NCBI GenBank assembly: GCA_005879795.1
Contig: VBKJ01000129.1
Location: 1,931 to 65,930 of the forward strand
Origin: Deltaproteobacteria bacterium
GTDB lineage: Bacteria > Desulfobacterota > Binatia > DP-6
Reading direction: 5' to 3'
DNA length: 64,000 nucleotides
Positions 26,355-36,296 of this stretch are shown piece by piece; position 1 is the stretch's first letter, and every line of letters begins with the position of its first letter. The notes below the pieces were generated by a model. That model had not been told where the DNA came from and searched no databases. It saw only the letters and a list, made by a program, of their open reading frames with translations. Position numbers and translations under genes: made by a program.

Positions 26355-27224
26355 ATGCCGCGCCGCCTGATCGGCGCGCTCGCCGTCGCGCTCGTCGCGC
26401 TCGGGTGCGCCGGCAAGAAACCGGTCATCCCGCCCGAGAAACTCTGGGGCGAGGCGGAGGACGCTTTCAACATCGAGGCGTACGAGCTCGCCGTCGACCG
26501 CTACAAGAAGCTCCTCGACCAGCACCCCTTCGACCAGCACGCCGAGGAGGCGGAGCTGAAGATCGCGCTCTCGTACTACAAGGCACAGCGCTGGGCCGAG
26601 GCGATCGCTGCCTTCGGCGACTTCGAGCGCATGCACCCGACCAGCACGGAGCTGGCCGCGGTCGAGTACCACCTCGGCATGGCGTACCTCGCCCAGGCGA
26701 GCACCAGCGATCGCGACCAGCAGTCGCATGCCAACGCGCTCACCTACTTCCGCAACCTGACCGACCGCTTCCCGCTGAGCCCGTGGGCGGAGAAGGCGCG
26801 GCTCCGGGTGCGCGAGTGCCGCGAGGCGCTCGCCAAGCACGAGGCGGACGTCGCGGCCTACTACTTGAAGATCGGCAACCTGAAGGCCGCCGAGGCGCGG
26901 CTCCAGGGGCTCCTCACCGACTACCCGGAGACCGACGCCGCCGCCCAGTGCCTGTACGCCTTCGCCCAGGTGTACGCGGCCCGCAACGAGGCCGAGGGCG
27001 CGACCCTCGCGCTCGCCACCCTGGCGCGCCACCACCCCGACGGCCCGCTCGGGCGCGAGGCCAGGGAGCGCCTCGGCGCCGCCGTCTCGCTCGACGGCGA
27101 CGACCCCATGAACCTCCTGATCGCCCACATCGTGCACATGCGCACCGAGGCCGACCGCCAGAAGCTCCCGAACACGGTCTCGGCCTACCCCGACATCACC
27201 GGCGCCACCCCGCCCACGCCGTAG
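26355..27224 (+). CDS. bamD: outer membrane protein assembly factor BamD (lipoprotein, TPR)
   Basis: Lipobox LGCAG; TPR repeats; matches the BamD/YfiO family. Confidence 0.8.
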   Translation: MPRRLIGALAVALVALGCAGKKPVIPPEKLWGEAEDAFNIEAYELAVDRYKKLLDQHPFDQHAEEAELKIALSYYKAQRWAEAIAAFGDFERMHPTSTELAAVEYHLGMAYLAQASTSDRDQQSHANALTYFRNLTDRFPLSPWAEKARLRVRECREALAKHEADVAAYYLKIGNLKAAEARLQGLLTDYPETDAAAQCLYAFAQVYAARNEAEGATLALATLARHHPDGPLGREARERLGAAVSLDGDDPMNLLIAHIVHMRTEADRQKLPNTVSAYPDITGATPPTP

Positions 27225-27228
27225 CGCG

Positions 27229-27257
27229 CATTGACACAAGCGCGCCTTTCGGGTTAG
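27229..27257 (+). promoter_or_regulatory. candidate sigma70 promoter of the riboswitch operon
   Basis: TTGACA, then a 17-nt spacer, then TTAGCT, ~30 nt upstream of the riboswitch P1. Confidence 0.35.
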
Positions 27258-27284
27258 CTCCGCTCCGAGAGAAACGACAAAACA

Positions 27285-27400
27285 TTGCCTTATCCAGAGT
27301 GGCTGAGGGCCCGGCCCGGCGACGCCACAGCAACCGGTCCTGAAACGGACGCTGGTGCTAATTCCGACGCTGCCCGCGCGGGCGGCGAAAGATAAGGTTC
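27285..27400 (+). ncRNA. SAM-I (S-box) riboswitch aptamer
   Basis: P1 CUUAUC...GAUAAG; conserved GAGGGcccGGCCCggcGAcGCCacaGCAACC, GGUGCUAAUUCC and GAAAGAUAAGG blocks in canonical order. Confidence 0.9.
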
Positions 27401-27410
27401 GCACGCTGGT

Positions 27411-27446
27411 GAGCCCCTCTTCCTGCTGGAGAGGGGCTTTTTTATT
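27411..27446 (+). terminator. intrinsic terminator (riboswitch expression platform)
   Basis: GAGCCCCUCUUCC-ugcugg-AGAGGGGCU hairpin followed by UUUUUUAUU, 5 nt before the first ATG. Confidence 0.85.
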
Positions 27447-27450
27447 GCGC

Positions 27451-28167
27451 ATGTCGACGACGAGCGAAGAAAGGATTTCCCGCGGGCGCGTCCTCGTGAT
27501 CGGCGTCGGCGGCCTCGGTGCGCCCGCCGCGACGGCGCTCGCCGCCGCGGGCGTGGGGACGGTCGGGCTCATCGATCCCGACACGGTCGAGGTCTCGAAC
27601 CTCCACCGCCAGCCGCTCTACACGAGCGCGGACGTCGGCCGGGCGAAGGTCGAGGTCGCGGCCGAGCGGCTCGGCGCGCTCGCGCCGGCGCTCCGCGTCG
27701 AGACGTGGCGCGCGCGCTTCGGCCCGGCGGACGCCCATCTGCTGCGCGGCTTCGACGTCGTCCTCGACGGCACGGACACCATCGCCGCCAAGTTCGTCGT
27801 GAACGACGCCGCGGTGGCGGCGGGCGTGCCGCTCGTCCACGCGGGCGTGCTCGGCTTCCGCGCGCAGCTCCTGACCGTGCTGCCGGGACGAAGCGCGTGC
27901 TACCGCTGCGTCTTCGAGGAGGCGCCGCCGGCGGGCGATGTGCCGTCCTGCCAGGAGGCCGGCGTGCTCGGGCCGGTCGCCGCGCTCGCGGGCGCGCTCG
28001 AGGCGGCCGAGGCGATCCGCCTCCTCGCCGGCGAGCCCCCCGCCTGGGCGAACGCGCTCCTCGCCATCGACACGCAGGCGGGGAGCTGGCGCACCGTGCC
28101 GGTCGCTCCGAGTCCGCGCTGCCCGGCGTGCGTGCCCCGCGCCGCCGAAAGGAGTCACGCCCCATGA
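27451..28167 (+). CDS. E1-like adenylyltransferase (MoeB/ThiF family), N-terminally short
   Basis: VLVIGVGGLGAPAATALAAAGVG nucleotide loop; CYRC...CPAC zinc motif; lacks the usual N-terminal RYSRQ helix. Confidence 0.8.
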   Translation: MSTTSEERISRGRVLVIGVGGLGAPAATALAAAGVGTVGLIDPDTVEVSNLHRQPLYTSADVGRAKVEVAAERLGALAPALRVETWRARFGPADAHLLRGFDVVLDGTDTIAAKFVVNDAAVAAGVPLVHAGVLGFRAQLLTVLPGRSACYRCVFEEAPPAGDVPSCQEAGVLGPVAALAGALEAAEAIRLLAGEPPAWANALLAIDTQAGSWRTVPVAPSPRCPACVPRAAERSHAP

Positions 28168-29417
28168 GCTACGTGAAGGGTCTCCGCTGCCGCGAGTGCG
28201 GCGCCGAGACGCCGATCGCGCCGTTGCACGTGTGCGAGACGTGCTTCGGCCCGTTCGAGGTCCAGTACGACTACGCCGCCATCCGCCGCGCGCTGACCCG
28301 CGAGAAGATCGCCGCCCGCCCGCGCAACCTCTGGCGCTACCGCGAGCTCCTGCCGATCGAGGGCGAGCCGCGCGTCGGGCTCCACTCGGGCATGACGCCG
28401 CTGGTGCGCGCGGACCGGCTGGCCGCCGTGCTCGGCGTGAAGGAGCTCTGGGTCAAGGACGACTCGGTCAACCACCCGACCTTCTCCTACAAGGACCGAG
28501 TCGTCTCGGTCGCGATCTCGAAGGCGATCGAGTTCGGCTTCGAGACCGTGTCGTGCGCCTCGACCGGCAACCTCGCCAACTCCGTCTCGGCGCACGCGGC
28601 GCGCGCCGCCCTCGCCTGCTACATCTTCATCCCCGACGACCTCGAGCAGGGCAAGGTGATCGGGTCCACCATCTACGGCCCGCGCACCATCGCCGTGCGC
28701 GGCACCTACGACGACGTGAACCGGCTGTGCAGCGAGGTGGCGGACAAGTACGGCTGGGCCTTCGTCAACATCAACGTGCGTCCGTACTACACGGAGGGCG
28801 CCAAGACCTACGGCTTCGAGATCGCGGAGCAGCTCGGCTGGCGGCTCCCGAGGCACATCGTGGTCCCGACCGCGGGCGGCACGATCCTGCCCAAGGTCGC
28901 CAAGGCGTTCCGCGAGCTGCGCGACCTCGGCCTGGTCGAGGGCGATTTCAAGATCTACACGGCGCAGGCGGCGGGCTGCGCCCCCGTCGTGCACGCGCTC
29001 CACAAGGGCGCGGAGCTCATCGCCCCCGTGAAGCCGCAGACGATCGCCAAGTCCATCGCCATCGGCAACCCGGCCGACGGCTTCTACGTGCTCAAGGCCG
29101 TGCGCGAGTCGGGCGGCTGGGGCGAAGCGGTGACCGACGAGGAGATCGTGGCCGGCATCCGGCTCCTCGCCCGCACCGAGGGGATCTTCACCGAGCCCGC
29201 GGGCGGCACGACGGTCGCGGTCACCAAGAAGCTGATCGAACAGGGGAGGATCCCCCGTGATGAGTCGATCGTCGTGAGCATCACGGGCAACGGCTACAAG
29301 ACGCTCGAGGCGGTGCTCGACACGGTCGAGCAGCCGTTCCGCATCCCGGCCCGCCTCGCCGACTTCGACGAGCTGCACGCTCGCCTGAACGCCGCCCGCG
29401 CGGCGAGCGCCGTCTGA
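28164..29417 (+). CDS. threonine-synthase-like PLP enzyme (MetM-like candidate homocysteine synthase) with N-terminal zinc ribbon
   Basis: N-terminal CRECG...CETC; PLP lysine in FSYKDR; GGAG RBS; ATG overlaps the upstream stop (ATGA). Confidence 0.85.
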   Translation: MSYVKGLRCRECGAETPIAPLHVCETCFGPFEVQYDYAAIRRALTREKIAARPRNLWRYRELLPIEGEPRVGLHSGMTPLVRADRLAAVLGVKELWVKDDSVNHPTFSYKDRVVSVAISKAIEFGFETVSCASTGNLANSVSAHAARAALACYIFIPDDLEQGKVIGSTIYGPRTIAVRGTYDDVNRLCSEVADKYGWAFVNINVRPYYTEGAKTYGFEIAEQLGWRLPRHIVVPTAGGTILPKVAKAFRELRDLGLVEGDFKIYTAQAAGCAPVVHALHKGAELIAPVKPQTIAKSIAIGNPADGFYVLKAVRESGGWGEAVTDEEIVAGIRLLARTEGIFTEPAGGTTVAVTKKLIEQGRIPRDESIVVSITGNGYKTLEAVLDTVEQPFRIPARLADFDELHARLNAARAASAV

Positions 29418-29445
29418 CTAGCAACGGGAAGGAGGAACCGTCATC

Positions 29446-29721
29446 ATGGTCCAGGTCAAGGTACCAACGCCGCTCCGCAAGTACACGGGGGGCGCCGGGG
29501 GGATCGAGGCGCAGGGGGCGACGGTGGCCGCGCTCGTGGACGATCTCGAGCGGCGCTACCCGGGGCTGAAGGAGCGCATCTGTGACGAGTCGGGACAGGT
29601 GCGGCGCTTCGTGAACATCTTCGTCAACGGCGAGGACATCCGCTTCCTCGCGCACCTCGACACGCCCCTCAAGGCGGGGGACGAGCTGTCGATCGTCCCG
29701 GCGATCGCCGGAGGCCGCTAG
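29446..29721 (+). CDS. MoaD/ThiS/CysO-like sulfur-carrier protein ending in Gly-Gly-Arg
   Basis: 91 aa with a beta-grasp pattern; C-terminus ...SIVPAIAGGR. Confidence 0.7.
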   Translation: MVQVKVPTPLRKYTGGAGGIEAQGATVAALVDDLERRYPGLKERICDESGQVRRFVNIFVNGEDIRFLAHLDTPLKAGDELSIVPAIAGGR

Positions 29722-29734
29722 CCGCGGCCCTCCT

Positions 29735-30721
29735 GTGCTCTCCGCGCGCGCCGTCCTTGCCCGTCCGACCTCGCCCGCCGCGGGGCCGCTCGCCGTGCCC
29801 TCCGCGCTCCAGCTGGTCGGCAACACGCCGCTGGTCGAGATCCGGCGCGCGCGGGACGGCGTGGCGCCGGGGGTGCGCATCCTCGGCAAGCTCGAGGGCT
29901 TCAACCCCGGCGGCTCGGTGAAGGACCGCCCCGCCCTCAAGATGATCGAGGACGGGCTCGCGCGCGGGCGGCTCGTGCCCGGGAAGACGATCCTCGACTC
30001 CACCTCGGGCAACACCGGCATCGCGCTCGCCATGGTGGGCGCCGCGCTCGGCTACCCGGTCGAGCTGGTGATGCCGGGCAACGTGAGCAAGGAGCGCAAG
30101 CAGGTGGTGGCCGCCTTCGGCGCCAAGGCGATCTTCTCGGACCCGCTCGAGGGCTCCGACGGGGCGATCCGCCTCTGCCGTCAGATACTGGCCGAGAACC
30201 CCGACCGCTACTTCAAGCCCGACCAGTACAACAACGAGGCGAACTCGCTCGCCCACTACGAGACCACGGGCCCCGAGATCTGGCGCCAGACCGCCGGCGC
30301 CATCACGCACTTCGTCGCCACCATCGGCACCGGCGGGACGATCATGGGGACGGGGCGCCATTTGAAGGAGCAGAACCGGAGCGTCCAGGTGATCGCCGCC
30401 GAGCCCGCCGACGCCTTCCACGGCATCGAGGGGCTCAAACACATGGCGTCCTCGATCGTACCCGGCATCTATCACGAGGAGGCGCTCGACCGGAAGCTCG
30501 GGATCGACACCGAGGACGCCTACAACATGGTCTACCGCCTCGGCCGCGAGGAGGGCCTGCTGCTCGGGCAGTCGAGCGGCGCGGCGCACGTGGCAGCGCT
30601 CGAGGTGGCGCGCGCACTCCGCGAGGGGACGGTGGTCGTCCTCTACCCCGACTTCGGCGACCGCTACCTCTCGACCAACCTGTGGGTCGGCTGGCAGAAG
30701 CTGGGAGGGACGACGCCATGA
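29735..30721 (+). CDS. cysM: cysteine synthase B-like PLP enzyme (CysM/CysK family)
   Basis: PLP lysine in GGSVKDR; GTGGT loop; full-length match. Confidence 0.85.
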   Translation: MLSARAVLARPTSPAAGPLAVPSALQLVGNTPLVEIRRARDGVAPGVRILGKLEGFNPGGSVKDRPALKMIEDGLARGRLVPGKTILDSTSGNTGIALAMVGAALGYPVELVMPGNVSKERKQVVAAFGAKAIFSDPLEGSDGAIRLCRQILAENPDRYFKPDQYNNEANSLAHYETTGPEIWRQTAGAITHFVATIGTGGTIMGTGRHLKEQNRSVQVIAAEPADAFHGIEGLKHMASSIVPGIYHEEALDRKLGIDTEDAYNMVYRLGREEGLLLGQSSGAAHVAALEVARALREGTVVVLYPDFGDRYLSTNLWVGWQKLGGTTP

Positions 30722-31002
30722 AGCGGCCGCCGCCACGCCTCGCCAAGGCGGAGCCCGCGCCGGTCGCGCGCGGGAAGTTCTACCTCACCTACCCGAAGAA
30801 GCTCGTGAAGGAGCCGCTCATCTACCAGATGAGCCGGAAGTTCGACCTGGTGTTCAACGTGCGCAGCGCGAGCGTCAGCGAGGAGATCGGCATCATCGCC
30901 CTCGAGCTCGACGGCCGGCAGGGGGAGATCGACGCCGCCGTCGAGTGGTTCCGCGCCCAGGGCGTCACCGTCGAGCCGATCGAGAAGAACGTCATCGAGT
31001 GA
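30718..31002 (+). CDS. stand-alone NIL-domain protein (MetN C-terminal-like ferredoxin fold)
   Basis: 94 aa; ...LIYQMSRKFDLVFNVRSASVSEEIGIIALELDG... is the pattern of the NIL domain; ATG overlaps the cysM stop. Confidence 0.55.
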   Translation: MKRPPPRLAKAEPAPVARGKFYLTYPKKLVKEPLIYQMSRKFDLVFNVRSASVSEEIGIIALELDGRQGEIDAAVEWFRAQGVTVEPIEKNVIE

Positions 31003-31004
31003 TG

Positions 31005-31628
31005 CTGACCGAGGCGCAGATCGAGCGCTACAGCCGCCAGATCGTGCTGCCCGAGGTGGGCGGGGGCGGGCAGGAGCGGCTGCTCGCGGCGCGCGTCGTG
31101 CTGGCCGGTGACGGGCCGGCGGCGGAGGCGGCCGCCACCTTCCTCGGCCGCGCGGGTGTGGGCGCGCTGCACCTCCAGGCGAGCGCCGGCGCGCTGTCCG
31201 AGCTGTCGCCCGACTGCCAGGTGAGCCGCCACGCGGGCCTCGAGGAAGCGCCTGCGGCCGGCGTCGTCGTCGACCTGACGCCAGACACCGCGTTGAGCGC
31301 CGTGCTCGCCCGCCGGGCACAGGCGGGGCGGCCGTGCGTGCTCGGCGCCCTCAGCGGAGCGATGATCTTCGTCTTGACGCTGGTCGGGCGGCCGTGCGTC
31401 GCCTGCCTCGGCTCGGAGCGCCTGGAAACGCGCCGCGCCGCCCGCGGGCCGCTCGCCGCGCCGGCGCTGCTCGGGCTCGGTGCGCTGGCGGCGAACGAGG
31501 CGCTTCGCGTCCTGCTCCTGCCTCCGGCCCGCGGCCGCCTGGTCAGCCTCGGGCTCGAGAGCGCCATCGTGAGCGCGGTCGAGGTGAGGTCCACCGCCGG
31601 CTGCGCCTTCTGCGGCGGCCGCCCGTGA
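31005..31628 (+). CDS. E1-like paralog with RYSRQI N-terminus but a degenerate nucleotide-binding loop
   Basis: MLTEAQIERYSRQIVLP...; Gly-rich loop replaced by VVLAGDGPAAEAA; CVAC...CAFC zinc motif retained. Confidence 0.6.
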   Translation: MTEAQIERYSRQIVLPEVGGGGQERLLAARVVLAGDGPAAEAAATFLGRAGVGALHLQASAGALSELSPDCQVSRHAGLEEAPAAGVVVDLTPDTALSAVLARRAQAGRPCVLGALSGAMIFVLTLVGRPCVACLGSERLETRRAARGPLAAPALLGLGALAANEALRVLLLPPARGRLVSLGLESAIVSAVEVRSTAGCAFCGGRP

Positions 31629-32806
31629 CCCACCCCGCGCACTGGAAGCCCGAGCTCGCCGCGCGCGGGGTGCGCCTCGACGCGAGCGCGGCGCGCCTGG
31701 GCGCCGGTGACACGGCGCGCCCCCTCGAGCTCGCCCTGCTCGACGACGTCCGCGTCGGCGTCCCGATCGACGAGCGCTCCCCATTCGTCCTCTTCGCCGA
31801 CAGCGCCCGGCACTTCCTCGTGCGCCGCGATCCGGGCGGGGCCGAGAGCGCGCGCGTCGAGGTGCGGCCCATCCCGCGGCCCGGCTTCTACGAGCGCCGC
31901 ACGAGCCGCGGCACGCCCATGGCGCGGATCGCCACCGTGCGCGGCAGCCACCTGCTCGTGAACCCGAGCAGCGCGTGCGGCTTCAGCGTGCGCGGCACGC
32001 CGTGCCGCTTCTGTGTCGAGGGTGCGCGCGTCTCCGCCGAGCGCGACGCGGTCCCGGTGGCCGACGTCCTCGAGGTCGTGCGCGCCGCGTTCGACGAGGG
32101 CGCGTGCGAGCTGGTGTACTTCAACACCAGCCACTTCGAGAGCGAGGACGGCGGCATCGCCTTCCTCGCCCCCTACATCGAGGCGGTGCGCCGGCACTTC
32201 GACACGCTGATCGCGACCCAGGTCCATCCGCCCCGCGCGACCCACTGGATCGACGAGACCTACGCCATGGGGGTCGACGCGCTCAGCTACAACCTCGAGA
32301 TCTTCGACCCCGACGTGTTGAACCGCCACTGCATCGGGCGCGCACGCTACATCGGGCGCGAGCGCTACCTCGAGTCCCTGGCGCACGCCGCCAGGGTGTT
32401 CCCGAGCGGCACGGTGTGGAGCGACCTGGTGCTCGGCCTCGAGCCCGCGGACTCGACGATCGCCGGCATCGACGCGCTGGTCGAGATGGGGGTGGTGCCG
32501 GTGGCCGCCCTCCTGCGGGGCGAGCACCCGCTGCCCGCGCCGGCCGACGTGGCGCCCCTGCTCGCGCACCTCTACCGCGCCGTCAAGCGCCGCGGCATCA
32601 ACATGGGCTGGGTGCGCGACCTGGCGCTCGGCATCACGCCCCTCGAGGCGCGTCACTTCGCCGGCGACGGCGCCCGCCTCGCGGTGACCGTCCAGCAGCT
32701 CACCCGCTCGCGCCTGGGCGCGCTCGCGGCGCGCGGCCTCGCCCGCTTCCGCCGCCGCCTGCGCGTGCGCAAGGTGAGCGAGTCGTTCGACGCCGCGCAC
32801 CTGTAG
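31625..32806 (+). CDS. putative Fe-S (radical-SAM-like?) TIM-barrel enzyme with an atypical Cx8Cx2C motif
   Basis: SSACGFSVRGTPCRFCVEG near the N-terminus of a ~390-aa alpha/beta protein; GTG overlaps the upstream stop; family not recognised. Confidence 0.45.
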   Translation: MTHPAHWKPELAARGVRLDASAARLGAGDTARPLELALLDDVRVGVPIDERSPFVLFADSARHFLVRRDPGGAESARVEVRPIPRPGFYERRTSRGTPMARIATVRGSHLLVNPSSACGFSVRGTPCRFCVEGARVSAERDAVPVADVLEVVRAAFDEGACELVYFNTSHFESEDGGIAFLAPYIEAVRRHFDTLIATQVHPPRATHWIDETYAMGVDALSYNLEIFDPDVLNRHCIGRARYIGRERYLESLAHAARVFPSGTVWSDLVLGLEPADSTIAGIDALVEMGVVPVAALLRGEHPLPAPADVAPLLAHLYRAVKRRGINMGWVRDLALGITPLEARHFAGDGARLAVTVQQLTRSRLGALAARGLARFRRRLRVRKVSESFDAAHL

Positions 32807-34336: not shown

Positions 34337-34353
34337 TCTATATCGGGTATAGA
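34337..34353. promoter_or_regulatory. perfect inverted repeat TCTATA-tcggg-TATAGA, candidate VapB operator/-10 region
   Basis: Palindrome 15 nt upstream of the vapB ATG; AbrB/MazE-type antitoxins autoregulate at such sites. Confidence 0.4.
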
Positions 34354-34367
34354 CTTGCGGTGAGCGC

Positions 34368-34604
34368 ATGAGCACGAGAGCGAAGCTGTTCTGGAACGGA
34401 CGCAGCCAGGCGGTCAGGCTGCCGAAGGAGTTCCGCTTCAGCGGCGACGAGGTCCTCATCCGCCGGGCGAACGACAAGGTGATCCTCGAGCCCGTTCACA
34501 AGGGCTGGGACGATACCTTCTGGGCCTGCTTCGGTAAGCTCTCGGACGACGTCGAGCGGACCGAGTTCGTGGCGAGCGAGCGCCGCGAGGATGCCTTCCC
34601 CTGA
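34368..34604 (+). CDS. vapB: VapB antitoxin (AbrB/SpoVT-MazE fold)
   Basis: 78 aa with a swapped-hairpin N-terminus (AKLFWNGRSQAVRLPKEFRF); overlaps vapC. Confidence 0.8.
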   Translation: MSTRAKLFWNGRSQAVRLPKEFRFSGDEVLIRRANDKVILEPVHKGWDDTFWACFGKLSDDVERTEFVASERREDAFP

Positions 34605-35036: not shown

Positions 35037-36296
35037 ATGCCCGATCTGATCCCTCCCCACGGCGGCCTGACCGAGCCCGTCTCCCTGACCGTCCCCGCGC
35101 ACGAGGTGGAGCGGTTCCGGGCGGAGGCGGCGCGCCTCGCCAGGGTGCCGGTCTCCGACTCCGACCTCTCGAGCGTCTATCGCTTCGGCGACGGCGGGCT
35201 CTCCCCGCTCACCGGCCCGATGGACGCGGCCACCTACCAGCGCGTCCTCGACGAGTGCGTGATCGAGCGCGGCGGCCGGCTCTACGCCTGGACGATCCCG
35301 ATCGCGCTGCCCGTGACGGCGGAGCTGGCGCGGAAGCTCGGGCGCGGAGAGACCGTCGCGCTGACCAACAGCGCCGGCGCCGTGGTCGCGACCCTCGCCA
35401 TCAGCGACGTCTACCCGTGGGACAAGGCGAAGTACCTGCGCAGCGTCTACGGCACCGAGCGCACCGACCATCCCGGCGCCGACATGGTGCTCAAGGGCGA
35501 CGCCGACAGGACGCACCTCCTCGGCGGCCGGCTGCGCGTGCTCCCGCAGCCGACGCACCCCGCGTTCGGGAGGTACGTGCTCACGCCGCGCGAGGTGCGC
35601 CGCCTGCTCGCCGCCAGGGGCTGGGACCGCGTGGTCGCCTTCCAGACCCGCAATCCGCTCCACCGCGCGCACGAGTATGCGCTCGTCTACGGGCTCGAGA
35701 CCCTGCTCCGGGCCGGGCACGACGCGGGCGCGGCTCTCAACCCCCTCATCGGCGAGACCAAGGGCGACGACGTGCACGCCGACGTGCGCATGCGGACCTA
35801 CGAGGCGCTCATCGAGACGCGCGCCCTCGGCGAGGGCGACAGCGATCCCACGCTCTGGGGGCCGCGCGGCGAGTCGGTGCCCGACCGGGTCATCCTCCTC
35901 GGCCTCGACATCAAGATGTTCTACGCCGGCCCGAAGGAGGCGGTGATGCACGGCATATACCGGCAGAACTTCGGCTTCACCGACCTGGTCGTCGGCCGCA
36001 AGCACGCGGATGCGCCCTTCCACGACGGCACGCCCATCTGGGGCGACTTCGACGCGCAGGAGGTCTTCGGCTCGCTCCGGGGCGACCTCGGGATCAAGCC
36101 CGTCAAGGTCGGCTTCGCCGCCTACTACGAGTCGGTCGGGCGCGTCGACCTGATGGACAACCATCCCGGCGAGAAGCCGCTCACCATCTCCGGCAAGGAC
36201 GTGCGCAGGGCGCTCCTCGAGGGCCGCGAGGTGGACCCGCGCATCATGCGGCCGAGCACGGCGCGGATCCTCGCGGCGGCGATGACCGGGGGCTGA
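35037..36296 (+). CDS. sat: sulfate adenylyltransferase (ATP sulfurylase)
   Basis: [11 protein letters not shown] and GRKHAD motifs; full-length match. Confidence 0.9.

Follow-up and report, generated by a model that had tools for sequence, protein, structure and literature searches.

We analysed a stretch of 64,000 nucleotides (nt) from the genome of an uncultured Binatia soil bacterium (Deltaproteobacteria bacterium, GenBank assembly GCA_005879795.1, contig VBKJ01000129.1, positions 1,931 to 65,930 of the forward strand). This stretch is hereafter called the window, and its first letter is position 1. Our subject is a riboswitch for S-adenosylmethionine (SAM) of the SAM-I (S-box) type, together with the sulfur-metabolism operon behind it. 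The riboswitch lies in a 226-nt intergenic region between bamD (26355-27224), the upstream neighbour, and the open reading frame (ORF) of a ThiF/MoeB-type E1 adenylyltransferase, the first regulated gene. The G+C content of this region is 62%, compared with 71-77% in the flanking genes. From 5' to 3' it holds a promoter-like element, the aptamer, a short linker, and a hairpin with a U tract; unless noted otherwise, all features lie on the + strand. An original prediction, made from the sequence alone, had placed a SAM-I riboswitch with a transcription terminator at 27229-27446. The riboswitch and the terminator were borne out, while the first 58 nt of that interval (27229-27286) turned out to be the promoter-like element and 5' leader rather than riboswitch.

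The aptamer was identified with Rfam cmscan, which was run on the whole window and both strands (128 kb searched) against all 4227 families at their gathering-score cut-offs. The sole match above the gathering score was RF00162 (SAM riboswitch, S-box leader) at 27287-27398, with 80.8 bits against a cut-off of 44.4 and an E-value of 1.9e-17. The match is untruncated and spans the whole model (positions 1-108 of 108), and RF00162 was the best family for this aptamer in the Rfam clan competition within CL00012. This was the search that the original prediction had proposed as its check, and the match is strong. Folded alone by free energy, the 112-nt aptamer forms the four-way junction of P1-P4; when the flanks are included, the most stable fold is the aptamer with the hairpin behind it. 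The Rfam alignment and the free-energy fold agree on P1, which pairs 27287-27294 with 27391-27398. The stem predicted earlier, CUUAUC/GAUAAG, is found inside it (CTTATC at 27289, GATAAG at 27391) and is thereby extended to 8 base pairs (bp). P2a pairs 27299-27303 with 27324-27328, P2b pairs 27307-27309 with 27315-27317, P3 lies inside 27329-27359, and P4 pairs 27368-27375 with 27380-27387. The prediction had named an inability of P1 and P3 to pair as the finding that would speak against it, and both helices form in the fold.

The conserved blocks stand in canonical order, as had been claimed, and all of the quoted motifs sit where they had been said to sit: GAGGG at 27305, GGCCC at 27313, GCAACC at 27330, GGTGCTAATTCC at 27354 and GAAAGATAAGG at 27387. 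In the cmscan alignment the core elements AGAG, GGC-GAGGG, GGCCC, GA-GCC, GCAACC, GGUGC-AA-UCC and AGAUAAG all fit the consensus, and the SAM-I core nucleotides do not vary in nine relatives spanning three phyla. Sequence elements of a possible P2 kink-turn are present (the UGA bulge and the GA of GGCGAC), with G19, A20, G35 and A36 invariant in the relatives. The candidate positions of the pseudoknot between the P2 loop and J3/4, whose placement is uncertain, are nearly invariant, and covariation there is therefore uninformative. The 3' end of the aptamer lies on the sense strand, 52 nt upstream of the first-gene ATG. By its model score, its four helices, its core nucleotides and its genomic position, the element is a SAM-I riboswitch, and the aptamer is predicted from these features to bind SAM.

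A linker of 12 nt separates P1 from an intrinsic-terminator-like hairpin. The hairpin has its 5' arm at 27411-27423, its loop at 27424-27427 and its 3' arm at 27428-27439, and it runs into the tract UUUUUUAUU at 27438-27446. The terminator scan called the hairpin at 27411-27439 with 12 pairs, seven of them G-C, and a T-rich tail behind it. At -21.7 kcal/mol (z -3.5) it is more stable than every one of 200 dinucleotide shuffles. The G+C-rich hairpin that had been described before the first ORF is thus confirmed by the scan. Two details of the earlier description needed correction: the tract TTTTTTATT holds six contiguous U (eight U in nine positions) rather than seven, and four bases (27447-27450), not five, lie between the tract and the ATG at 27451. 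Runs of at least six T number two in all on the + strand of the window, which has 73.5% G+C. In DNA where such runs are this rare, it is not by chance that one of them directly follows a strong stem that itself stands 12 nt downstream of a SAM aptamer.

Upstream of the aptamer, a promoter-like element was recognized by its conservation. It consists of TTGACA (27231-27236), a 17-nt spacer and TTAGCT (27254-27259). TTGACA is the same in all 11 closest relatives and GGTTAGCT almost so, while the flanking sequence varies. A sigma-70 consensus scan called no promoter at this place, because the -10 hexamer is poor. We nevertheless regard TTGACA-N17-TTAGCT as probably a promoter, on the strength of its conservation. 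It would place the transcription start near 27267-27269, with about 20 nt of leader before P1, and it explains why the interval of the original prediction began at 27229.

The conservation of the riboswitch was examined in relatives of the protein encoded by the second gene of the operon, a threonine synthase (ThrC)-like enzyme. This protein has very many metagenome relatives at 84-93% identity, and a genome scan with it yielded 80 related loci (L001-L080). The closest of them, with up to 97% identity, come from metagenome-assembled genomes labelled Candidatus Binatia, 'Deltaproteobacteria' or Thermodesulfobacteriota; those at 66-74% identity belong to Tepidisphaerales (Planctomycetota), including the cultured Fontivita pretiosa, and to Latescibacterota. 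Rfam detected RF00162 upstream of the ThrC-like gene in eight of 12 sampled loci. A covariance model built from the Rfam-positive relatives and run on the 80 loci and the window then located the aptamer in 54 of the loci, plus a single copy in the window; every copy lies on the sense strand. The gene that comes next after the aptamer is either the ThrC-like gene itself or, in Binatia, the E1 gene in front of that gene, and this placement is shared by Binatia, Tepidisphaerales and Latescibacterota.

Covariation was measured in an alignment of the 54 relatives fitted to the model, with pairing partners slid by 1-3 columns as the control. Overall, 93.4% of the pair cells were standard pairs, compared with 41-48% when slid. 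Compensatory change was seen in 17 of 33 pairs, with some in each of P1, P2, P3 and P4, and no shuffle out of 500 reached the observed covariation score. At position 2 of P1, for example, 32 sequences have C-G and 22 have U-A, while the stems of P3 and P4 vary freely yet stay paired. Since the window holds a single match in 128 kb, runs of at least six T are rare, and the structure covaries in relatives, chance is excluded as the source of the element. The hairpin shows the same kind of constraint: six of its 12 stem pairs have compensatory changes among the 11 closest relatives. Among the 55 homologous leaders, from the 54 loci and the window, 45 carry a hairpin with a U tract behind the aptamer; the script had counted 46, and L077 was excluded as having a hairpin that sequesters the Shine-Dalgarno (SD) sequence. 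The nearest relatives of the window, L002, L003, L004, L006, L008 and L012, have kept the U tract.

The riboswitch is not universal in this family. The aptamer was not found in 26 of the 80 loci, among which the contigs L001, L013, L061 and L064 end too near the gene to judge. The loci without it include L016, L018, L020, L029-L034, L038, L041-L045 and L049, and in several Binatia the gap between bamD and the E1 gene, about 100-180 nt, is too short to hold an aptamer. This operon therefore often has the riboswitch but does not require it. In the lineages that lack it the aptamer was lost or never acquired, and regulation there must differ.

The sampling of these loci also yielded two observations on the sequences themselves. 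The loci L018, L020, L023, L025 and L034 carry a Binatia-type locus at 80% protein identity and are labelled 'uncultured Enterobacteriaceae' or 'Klebsiella pneumoniae'; these labels are probably wrong. The metagenome contig L102 (Ga0209056_10029364, 5212 nt) has a leader identical to that of the window from P2 through the first E1 codons, so the same or a very close organism was sampled independently.

The genes behind the riboswitch were delimited by codon-position G+C, by which real genes can be picked in high-G+C DNA. The first encodes the E1 adenylyltransferase (27451-28167; 238 amino acids (aa); PF00899, E 6e-70), which falls short of the equivalog cut-offs for MoeB, ThiF and MoeZ, in the case of MoeZ by a wide margin, and has no rhodanese domain. 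Its ATG start is conserved in frame in the relatives. The second (28164-29417) encodes the ThrC-like enzyme, a pyridoxal 5'-phosphate (PLP) enzyme with an N-terminal Cys-rich ribbon (PF00291; NF006050, 324 bits), and the third (29446-29721) a ThiS/MoaD/SAMP-like sulfur carrier of 91 aa, resembling MetO and CysO, whose C-terminus reads AIAGG-R (PF02597; NF041918, TIGR01687). They are followed by a cysteine synthase of the CysM/CysK family (29735-30721), which is above the cut-off of TIGR01136 with 353 bits and just below that of TIGR01138 (cysM) with 377.5 against 394.2, and by a NIL-domain protein of 94 aa (30718-31002; PF09383, E 1e-15). A degenerate ThiF-like ORF (31002-31628), in which the PF00899 match is limited to the N-terminal 58 aa, and a variant radical SAM protein (about 31625-32806; NF045502, 152 bits, above cut-off) complete the series. 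The frames of these last two overlap those of their neighbours, and both are translationally coupled in the operon. From 27451 to 32806 most adjacent frames overlap or lie less than 30 nt apart.

Further downstream lie a DASS Na+/sulfate symporter (about 32.89-34.28 kb; PF00939), a MazE/AbrB-like ORF of 83 aa with the SpoVT-AbrB fold (34353-34604; PF04014) and an ATP sulfurylase (35037-36296; PF01747 and PF14306). Between 27446 and 36296 there is no convincing terminator; three weak matches on the + strand all fall within coding sequence. Whether the symporter, MazE/AbrB-like and ATP sulfurylase genes are co-transcribed with the operon is uncertain. In Binatia the gene order is kept: bamD, the SAM-I element, E1, the ThrC-like gene, the carrier gene, CysM, NIL, ThiF-like, radical SAM, the symporter and ATP sulfurylase. 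The MazE/AbrB-like ORF, which stands between the symporter and ATP sulfurylase, may encode a small DNA-binding regulator or an antitoxin. As an observation apart from the operon, the only run of seven A in the window lies at about 1800-1806 within GGGCTGAAAAAAAGAGCGGCC; it is a run of seven T on the - strand and could be the U tract of a terminator there.

By NCBIfam naming, the product of 28164-29417 would be a threonine synthase. In Streptomyces albulus, according to the accounts in PMC12172450, which cites Hasebe et al. 2024 (Appl Environ Microbiol 90:e01247-24), and in bioRxiv 10.1101/2024.10.14.618325, the threonine-synthase homologue MetM converts O-phospho-L-homoserine to homocysteine by means of the thiocarboxylate of MetO, with Mec and MoeZ as accessory enzymes. 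The GapMind preprint (bioRxiv 10.1101/2024.10.14.618325) describes MetM as often misannotated as threonine synthase. Given the sulfur carrier, the E1 enzyme and the SAM riboswitch in its context, we infer by analogy that the product of 28164-29417 is a MetM-like homocysteine synthase. As in MetM/MetO operons, the ThrC-like PLP enzyme adjoins a ThiS-like carrier with a C-terminal GG, which in the window is followed by R. The rhodanese-bearing MoeZ-type E1 of such operons was not found in the window and could be encoded elsewhere in the genome. The same applies to Mec: no ORF in the 64 kb window carries the Mec/JAMM protease motif, and such a gene could likewise lie elsewhere. A PDB sequence search with the ThrC-like protein returned canonical threonine synthases and serine dehydratases alone, and no solved MetM. 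The adjacent CysM suggests that the same carrier also feeds cysteine synthesis, by analogy with the mycobacterial CysO/CysM pair.

Two further observations concern these genes across the family. Among the carrier homologues in L001-L080, 28 end at GG and about 22 at GG followed by one variable residue (R, A, L, N, H, G, E, M, Y, K or V), a sequence pattern that implies C-terminal trimming before activation. A NIL-domain gene is found near the MetM-/MetO-like genes in Binatia, Tepidisphaerales (Planctomycetota) and Latescibacterota (L058, L062, L066, L067, L069-L071, L073, L074, L076-L080 and most Binatia). The small NIL-domain protein may belong to the thiocarboxylate pathway to homocysteine as an unrecognised part, or may regulate it.

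Free-energy folding was used to compare the two proposed states of the switch. The full-length leader prefers the aptamer together with the terminator (-74.0 kcal/mol against about -67.5 kcal/mol). In transcripts that end before the 3' arm, the best folds break P1 and pair the 5' arm elsewhere: window transcripts ending at 27424 and 27430 have minima of -53.8 and -59.6 kcal/mol, compared with -50.9 kcal/mol for the form of the aptamer with P1. In distant relatives (L014, L015, L019, L035 and others) the terminator 5' arm CCUCUUCCUUAUC mimics the 5' strand of P1, so GAUAAGG, the 3' strand of P1, has a choice of two partners, which is the classic S-box antiterminator. In these truncated transcripts of the window, and in those of 44 of 70 distinct sequences of its subclade, the free-energy minimum is a long-range pairing between P2 and the linker that breaks P1. 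This candidate pairs the P2 strand (GAGGGCCCGGC...GCGA.GCC) with the end of P1, the linker and the terminator 5' arm. In it, 88% of the cells were paired, against 33-48% when slid; the candidate was derived from the same sequences, which inflates the contrast.

The linker itself is conserved. In the 70 distinct subclade sequences its motif CGCACGCUGG (27400-27409) hardly changes, while the loops and stems around it vary. Such conservation points to a conserved alternative pairing, or to a pause or recognition element. The alternative pairing expected when SAM is scarce most likely combines CGCACGCUGG with the P2 strand or with the 3' strand of P1. Part of the linker, ACGCUGGUG, is present twice, once in the 3' strand of P3 (27349) and once in the linker (27403). 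A strand swap in P3 by this duplicate was considered and set aside, as it would leave the terminator unoccluded and cannot explain switching by itself.

Ahead of the first gene there is a single SD-like sequence, GGAGAGGGG (27428-27436), read directly from the DNA. It is part of the terminator 3' arm and stands at a distance of 14-19 nt from the ATG. A TTG at 27445, in frame and at an ideal SD spacing, was also considered as the start codon and rejected, because the relatives conserve the ATG, whereas in L002 and L004 the TTG falls out of frame. For this reason the ATG is taken as the start.

Putting these results together, we hold it to be quite probable that this SAM-I riboswitch heads a sulfur-carrier operon for homocysteine and cysteine synthesis and turns it off with SAM by transcription termination, with occlusion of the SD sequence in addition. 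The conserved TTGACA-N17-TTAGCT would probably direct transcription to start some 20 nt ahead of P1. When SAM is plentiful, it would bind the four-way-junction aptamer at 27287-27398 and lock P1. With P1 locked, the downstream segment would be free to form the 12-bp hairpin at 27411-27439 followed by UUUUUUAUU, and RNA polymerase would stop 4-10 nt upstream of the first-gene ATG. On transcripts that read through, the sole SD-like sequence would still be buried in the terminator hairpin. When SAM is scarce, an alternative pairing would take up the 5' arm of the hairpin, and the whole operon would be transcribed and translated. The original prediction had proposed an OFF switch acting by attenuation. 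The anatomy of the leader (an aptamer, 12 nt, a hairpin with a U tract and a met/cys operon) and the 45 of 55 leaders with the same arrangement support this proposal, and termination is expected from them to take place in vivo.

Several observations weigh against this reading. There is no SD sequence in the stretch from the U tract to the ATG. The close relatives L005, L007, L009 and L010 retain the homologous hairpin without the U tract, and judged by their sequences these relatives show that the same hairpin can act at the level of translation. The RNA polymerase of Binatia may perhaps not be efficient at intrinsic terminators. The other difficulty concerns the ON state. In the window the terminator 5' arm is GAGCCCCUCUUCC, and the CCUUAUC mimic of P1 has been lost. 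The long-range P2/linker pairing shows no compensatory change, and in 61 further distinct metagenomic sequences the P2 loop has C-to-A and C-to-G variants at pairing positions for which no partner compensates; we therefore keep it as a hypothetical antiterminator. A local antiterminator, in which the 3' strand of P1 and the linker pair with the terminator 5' arm (AAGA/UCUU with GGUUCGC/GUGAGCC), was not adopted: only 69% of its cells are paired, compensatory change is absent, and several close relatives have a C-A mismatch. It is possible, in our view with roughly one chance in four, that the platform of this subclade is atypical, one hairpin serving as terminator and SD sequestor and the ON state arising when the linker CGCACGCUGG and the terminator 5' arm invade P2, instead of the classic pairing of the P1 3' strand with the terminator 5' arm.

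The relatives without a U tract also bear on the question of which step is regulated. In L007 and L009 the purine-rich, SD-like sequence of the hairpin 3' arm lies 9-10 nt before the ATG, and in L063 and L077 (Tepidisphaerales) the hairpin adjoins the start codon and the U tract is absent. Evidently, from these comparisons, the homologous helix is an SD sequestor in some lineages and a terminator in others. L005, L007, L009 and L010 appear from their leaders to use the sequestering mode only, while the hairpin of the window probably does both, with termination as the main effect and occlusion of the ribosome-binding site on read-through transcripts. A switch acting on translation alone, in which the hairpin at 27411-27439 sequesters GGAGAGGGG in the presence of SAM and the U tract terminates little or not at all, would account for the position of the sole SD-like sequence in the 3' arm and for the six leaders (L005, L007, L009, L010, L063 and L077) that have a hairpin by the start codon and no U tract. 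It would also agree with the frequency of translational SAM-I platforms in high-G+C bacteria. We nevertheless consider it improbable, as the SD-like sequence of the window stands beyond the usual spacing from the ATG, the U tract is kept in the nearest relatives and in most of the homologous leaders, and a run of six T is very rare in DNA of this composition.

Termination with SD occlusion under SAM also has to be weighed against two further readings. The aptamer could be a decaying relic, with the hairpin and U tract serving as the terminator of the upstream bamD and the operon independent of SAM. It is true that bamD lies on the same strand with no other terminator after it, and that the 26 loci without a riboswitch (four of them on contigs too short to judge) show that the operon can do without one. 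A relic would hardly be expected to match the model over its whole length, with intact core nucleotides and close to double the gathering score, and the aptamer is under clear structural selection in the relatives. Moreover, the conserved promoter-like element lies between bamD and the aptamer, and the hairpin follows P1 by 12 nt as in S-box leaders. We judge this explanation very unlikely. Just as unlikely, in our estimate, is a SAM-I fold with another behaviour, that is, one that responds to a related ligand such as S-adenosylhomocysteine or acts as an ON switch. A covariance-model score by itself does not reveal ligand specificity, and we found nothing that specifically supports such a behaviour. 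Against it stand the complete set of conserved SAM-I core positions and the nature of the regulated genes, which serve homocysteine and cysteine synthesis and are classic targets of negative regulation by S-boxes. The form stabilised through P1, moreover, leaves the terminator free to form.

The element is a further example of a well-known type of switch, and SAM-riboswitch control of metM has already been described in Streptomyces. It adds little to riboswitch biology, since the standard Rfam model detects it and it behaves as S-box leaders are expected to. Its uses are modest. It points to the cluster at 27.4-32.8 kb, possibly extending to 36.3 kb, as SAM-repressed met/cys genes in Binatia, a phylum without a cultured member, and it favours a new annotation, MetM-type homocysteine synthase, for the 'threonine synthase' at 28164-29417. 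The genes of the NIL-domain, ThiF-like and radical SAM proteins become candidate new parts of the thiocarboxylate pathway to homocysteine and cysteine. As a natural series of the same hairpin with and without a U tract, the family is useful for studying the change between transcriptional and translational platforms. Its most unusual features are the dual-purpose hairpin, the possible P2-invading antiterminator with its invariant linker, and the uncharacterised genes that travel with the MetM-/MetO-like pair; the atypical platform, if true, would be of moderate interest to riboswitch specialists.

Compared with the SAM-I/S-box family, represented by yitJ and metI of Bacillus subtilis and metF of Thermoanaerobacter tengcongensis, the element shares the full model match, the P1-P4 junction and the core blocks, as well as its position in a met/cys leader, the terminator hairpin with a U tract immediately downstream and the OFF logic. 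Repression by SAM of genes of the methionine branch, of which SAM is the end product, is classic S-box logic. The element differs from a typical S-box in its uncultured, Binatia-type host with 73.5% G+C, and in its terminator: the 5' arm in the subclade of the window no longer mimics the 5' strand of P1, and the 3' arm doubles as the only SD-like sequence. With this mimicry lost, the classic antiterminator, formed by the P1 3' strand and the terminator 5' arm, is weak. In burying an SD-like sequence in a helix stabilised by the ligand, the element resembles the translational SAM-I, SAM-IV and SAM-I/IV switches of high-G+C bacteria and dual-acting ones, such as the lysC riboswitch of Escherichia coli. 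Unlike the translational SAM-I, SAM-IV and SAM-I/IV switches, it has a full U tract after the helix, and its aptamer is assigned to SAM-I and not to SAM-IV or SAM-I/IV.

The operon has counterparts as well. CysO-CysM-MoeZ-Mec of Mycobacterium tuberculosis carries out thiocarboxylate-dependent cysteine synthesis, and HcyS-HcyF-HcyD-MetY of Wolinella succinogenes is a comparable carrier-based cluster. As in these systems, a small carrier ending in GG (sometimes with an extra residue), an E1 enzyme and a PLP-dependent sulfhydrylase are clustered in the window. However, the E1 of the window is without the rhodanese domain of MoeZ, and its homocysteine-forming enzyme is ThrC-like rather than MetY-like. 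To our knowledge, the carrier systems of M. tuberculosis and W. succinogenes are not under the control of a SAM-I riboswitch. The closest parallel is the metM-metO system of S. albulus, compared here by its published description. A SAM riboswitch upstream of S. albulus metM is mentioned in PMC12172450, citing Hasebe et al. 2024, and in bioRxiv 10.1101/2024.10.14.618325. In both organisms, a SAM riboswitch precedes the gene of a ThrC-like enzyme, in the window a putative homocysteine synthase, and that of a ThiS-like carrier. By contrast with S. albulus, the E1 gene comes first in the window, the cysM, NIL-domain, degenerate ThiF-like and variant radical SAM genes are added, genes of sulfate uptake and activation follow, and no Mec/JAMM motif is encoded in the window. 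Nevertheless, an E1 enzyme, a ThrC-like enzyme and a GG carrier behind a SAM-I riboswitch fit the MetM/MetO logic of S. albulus.

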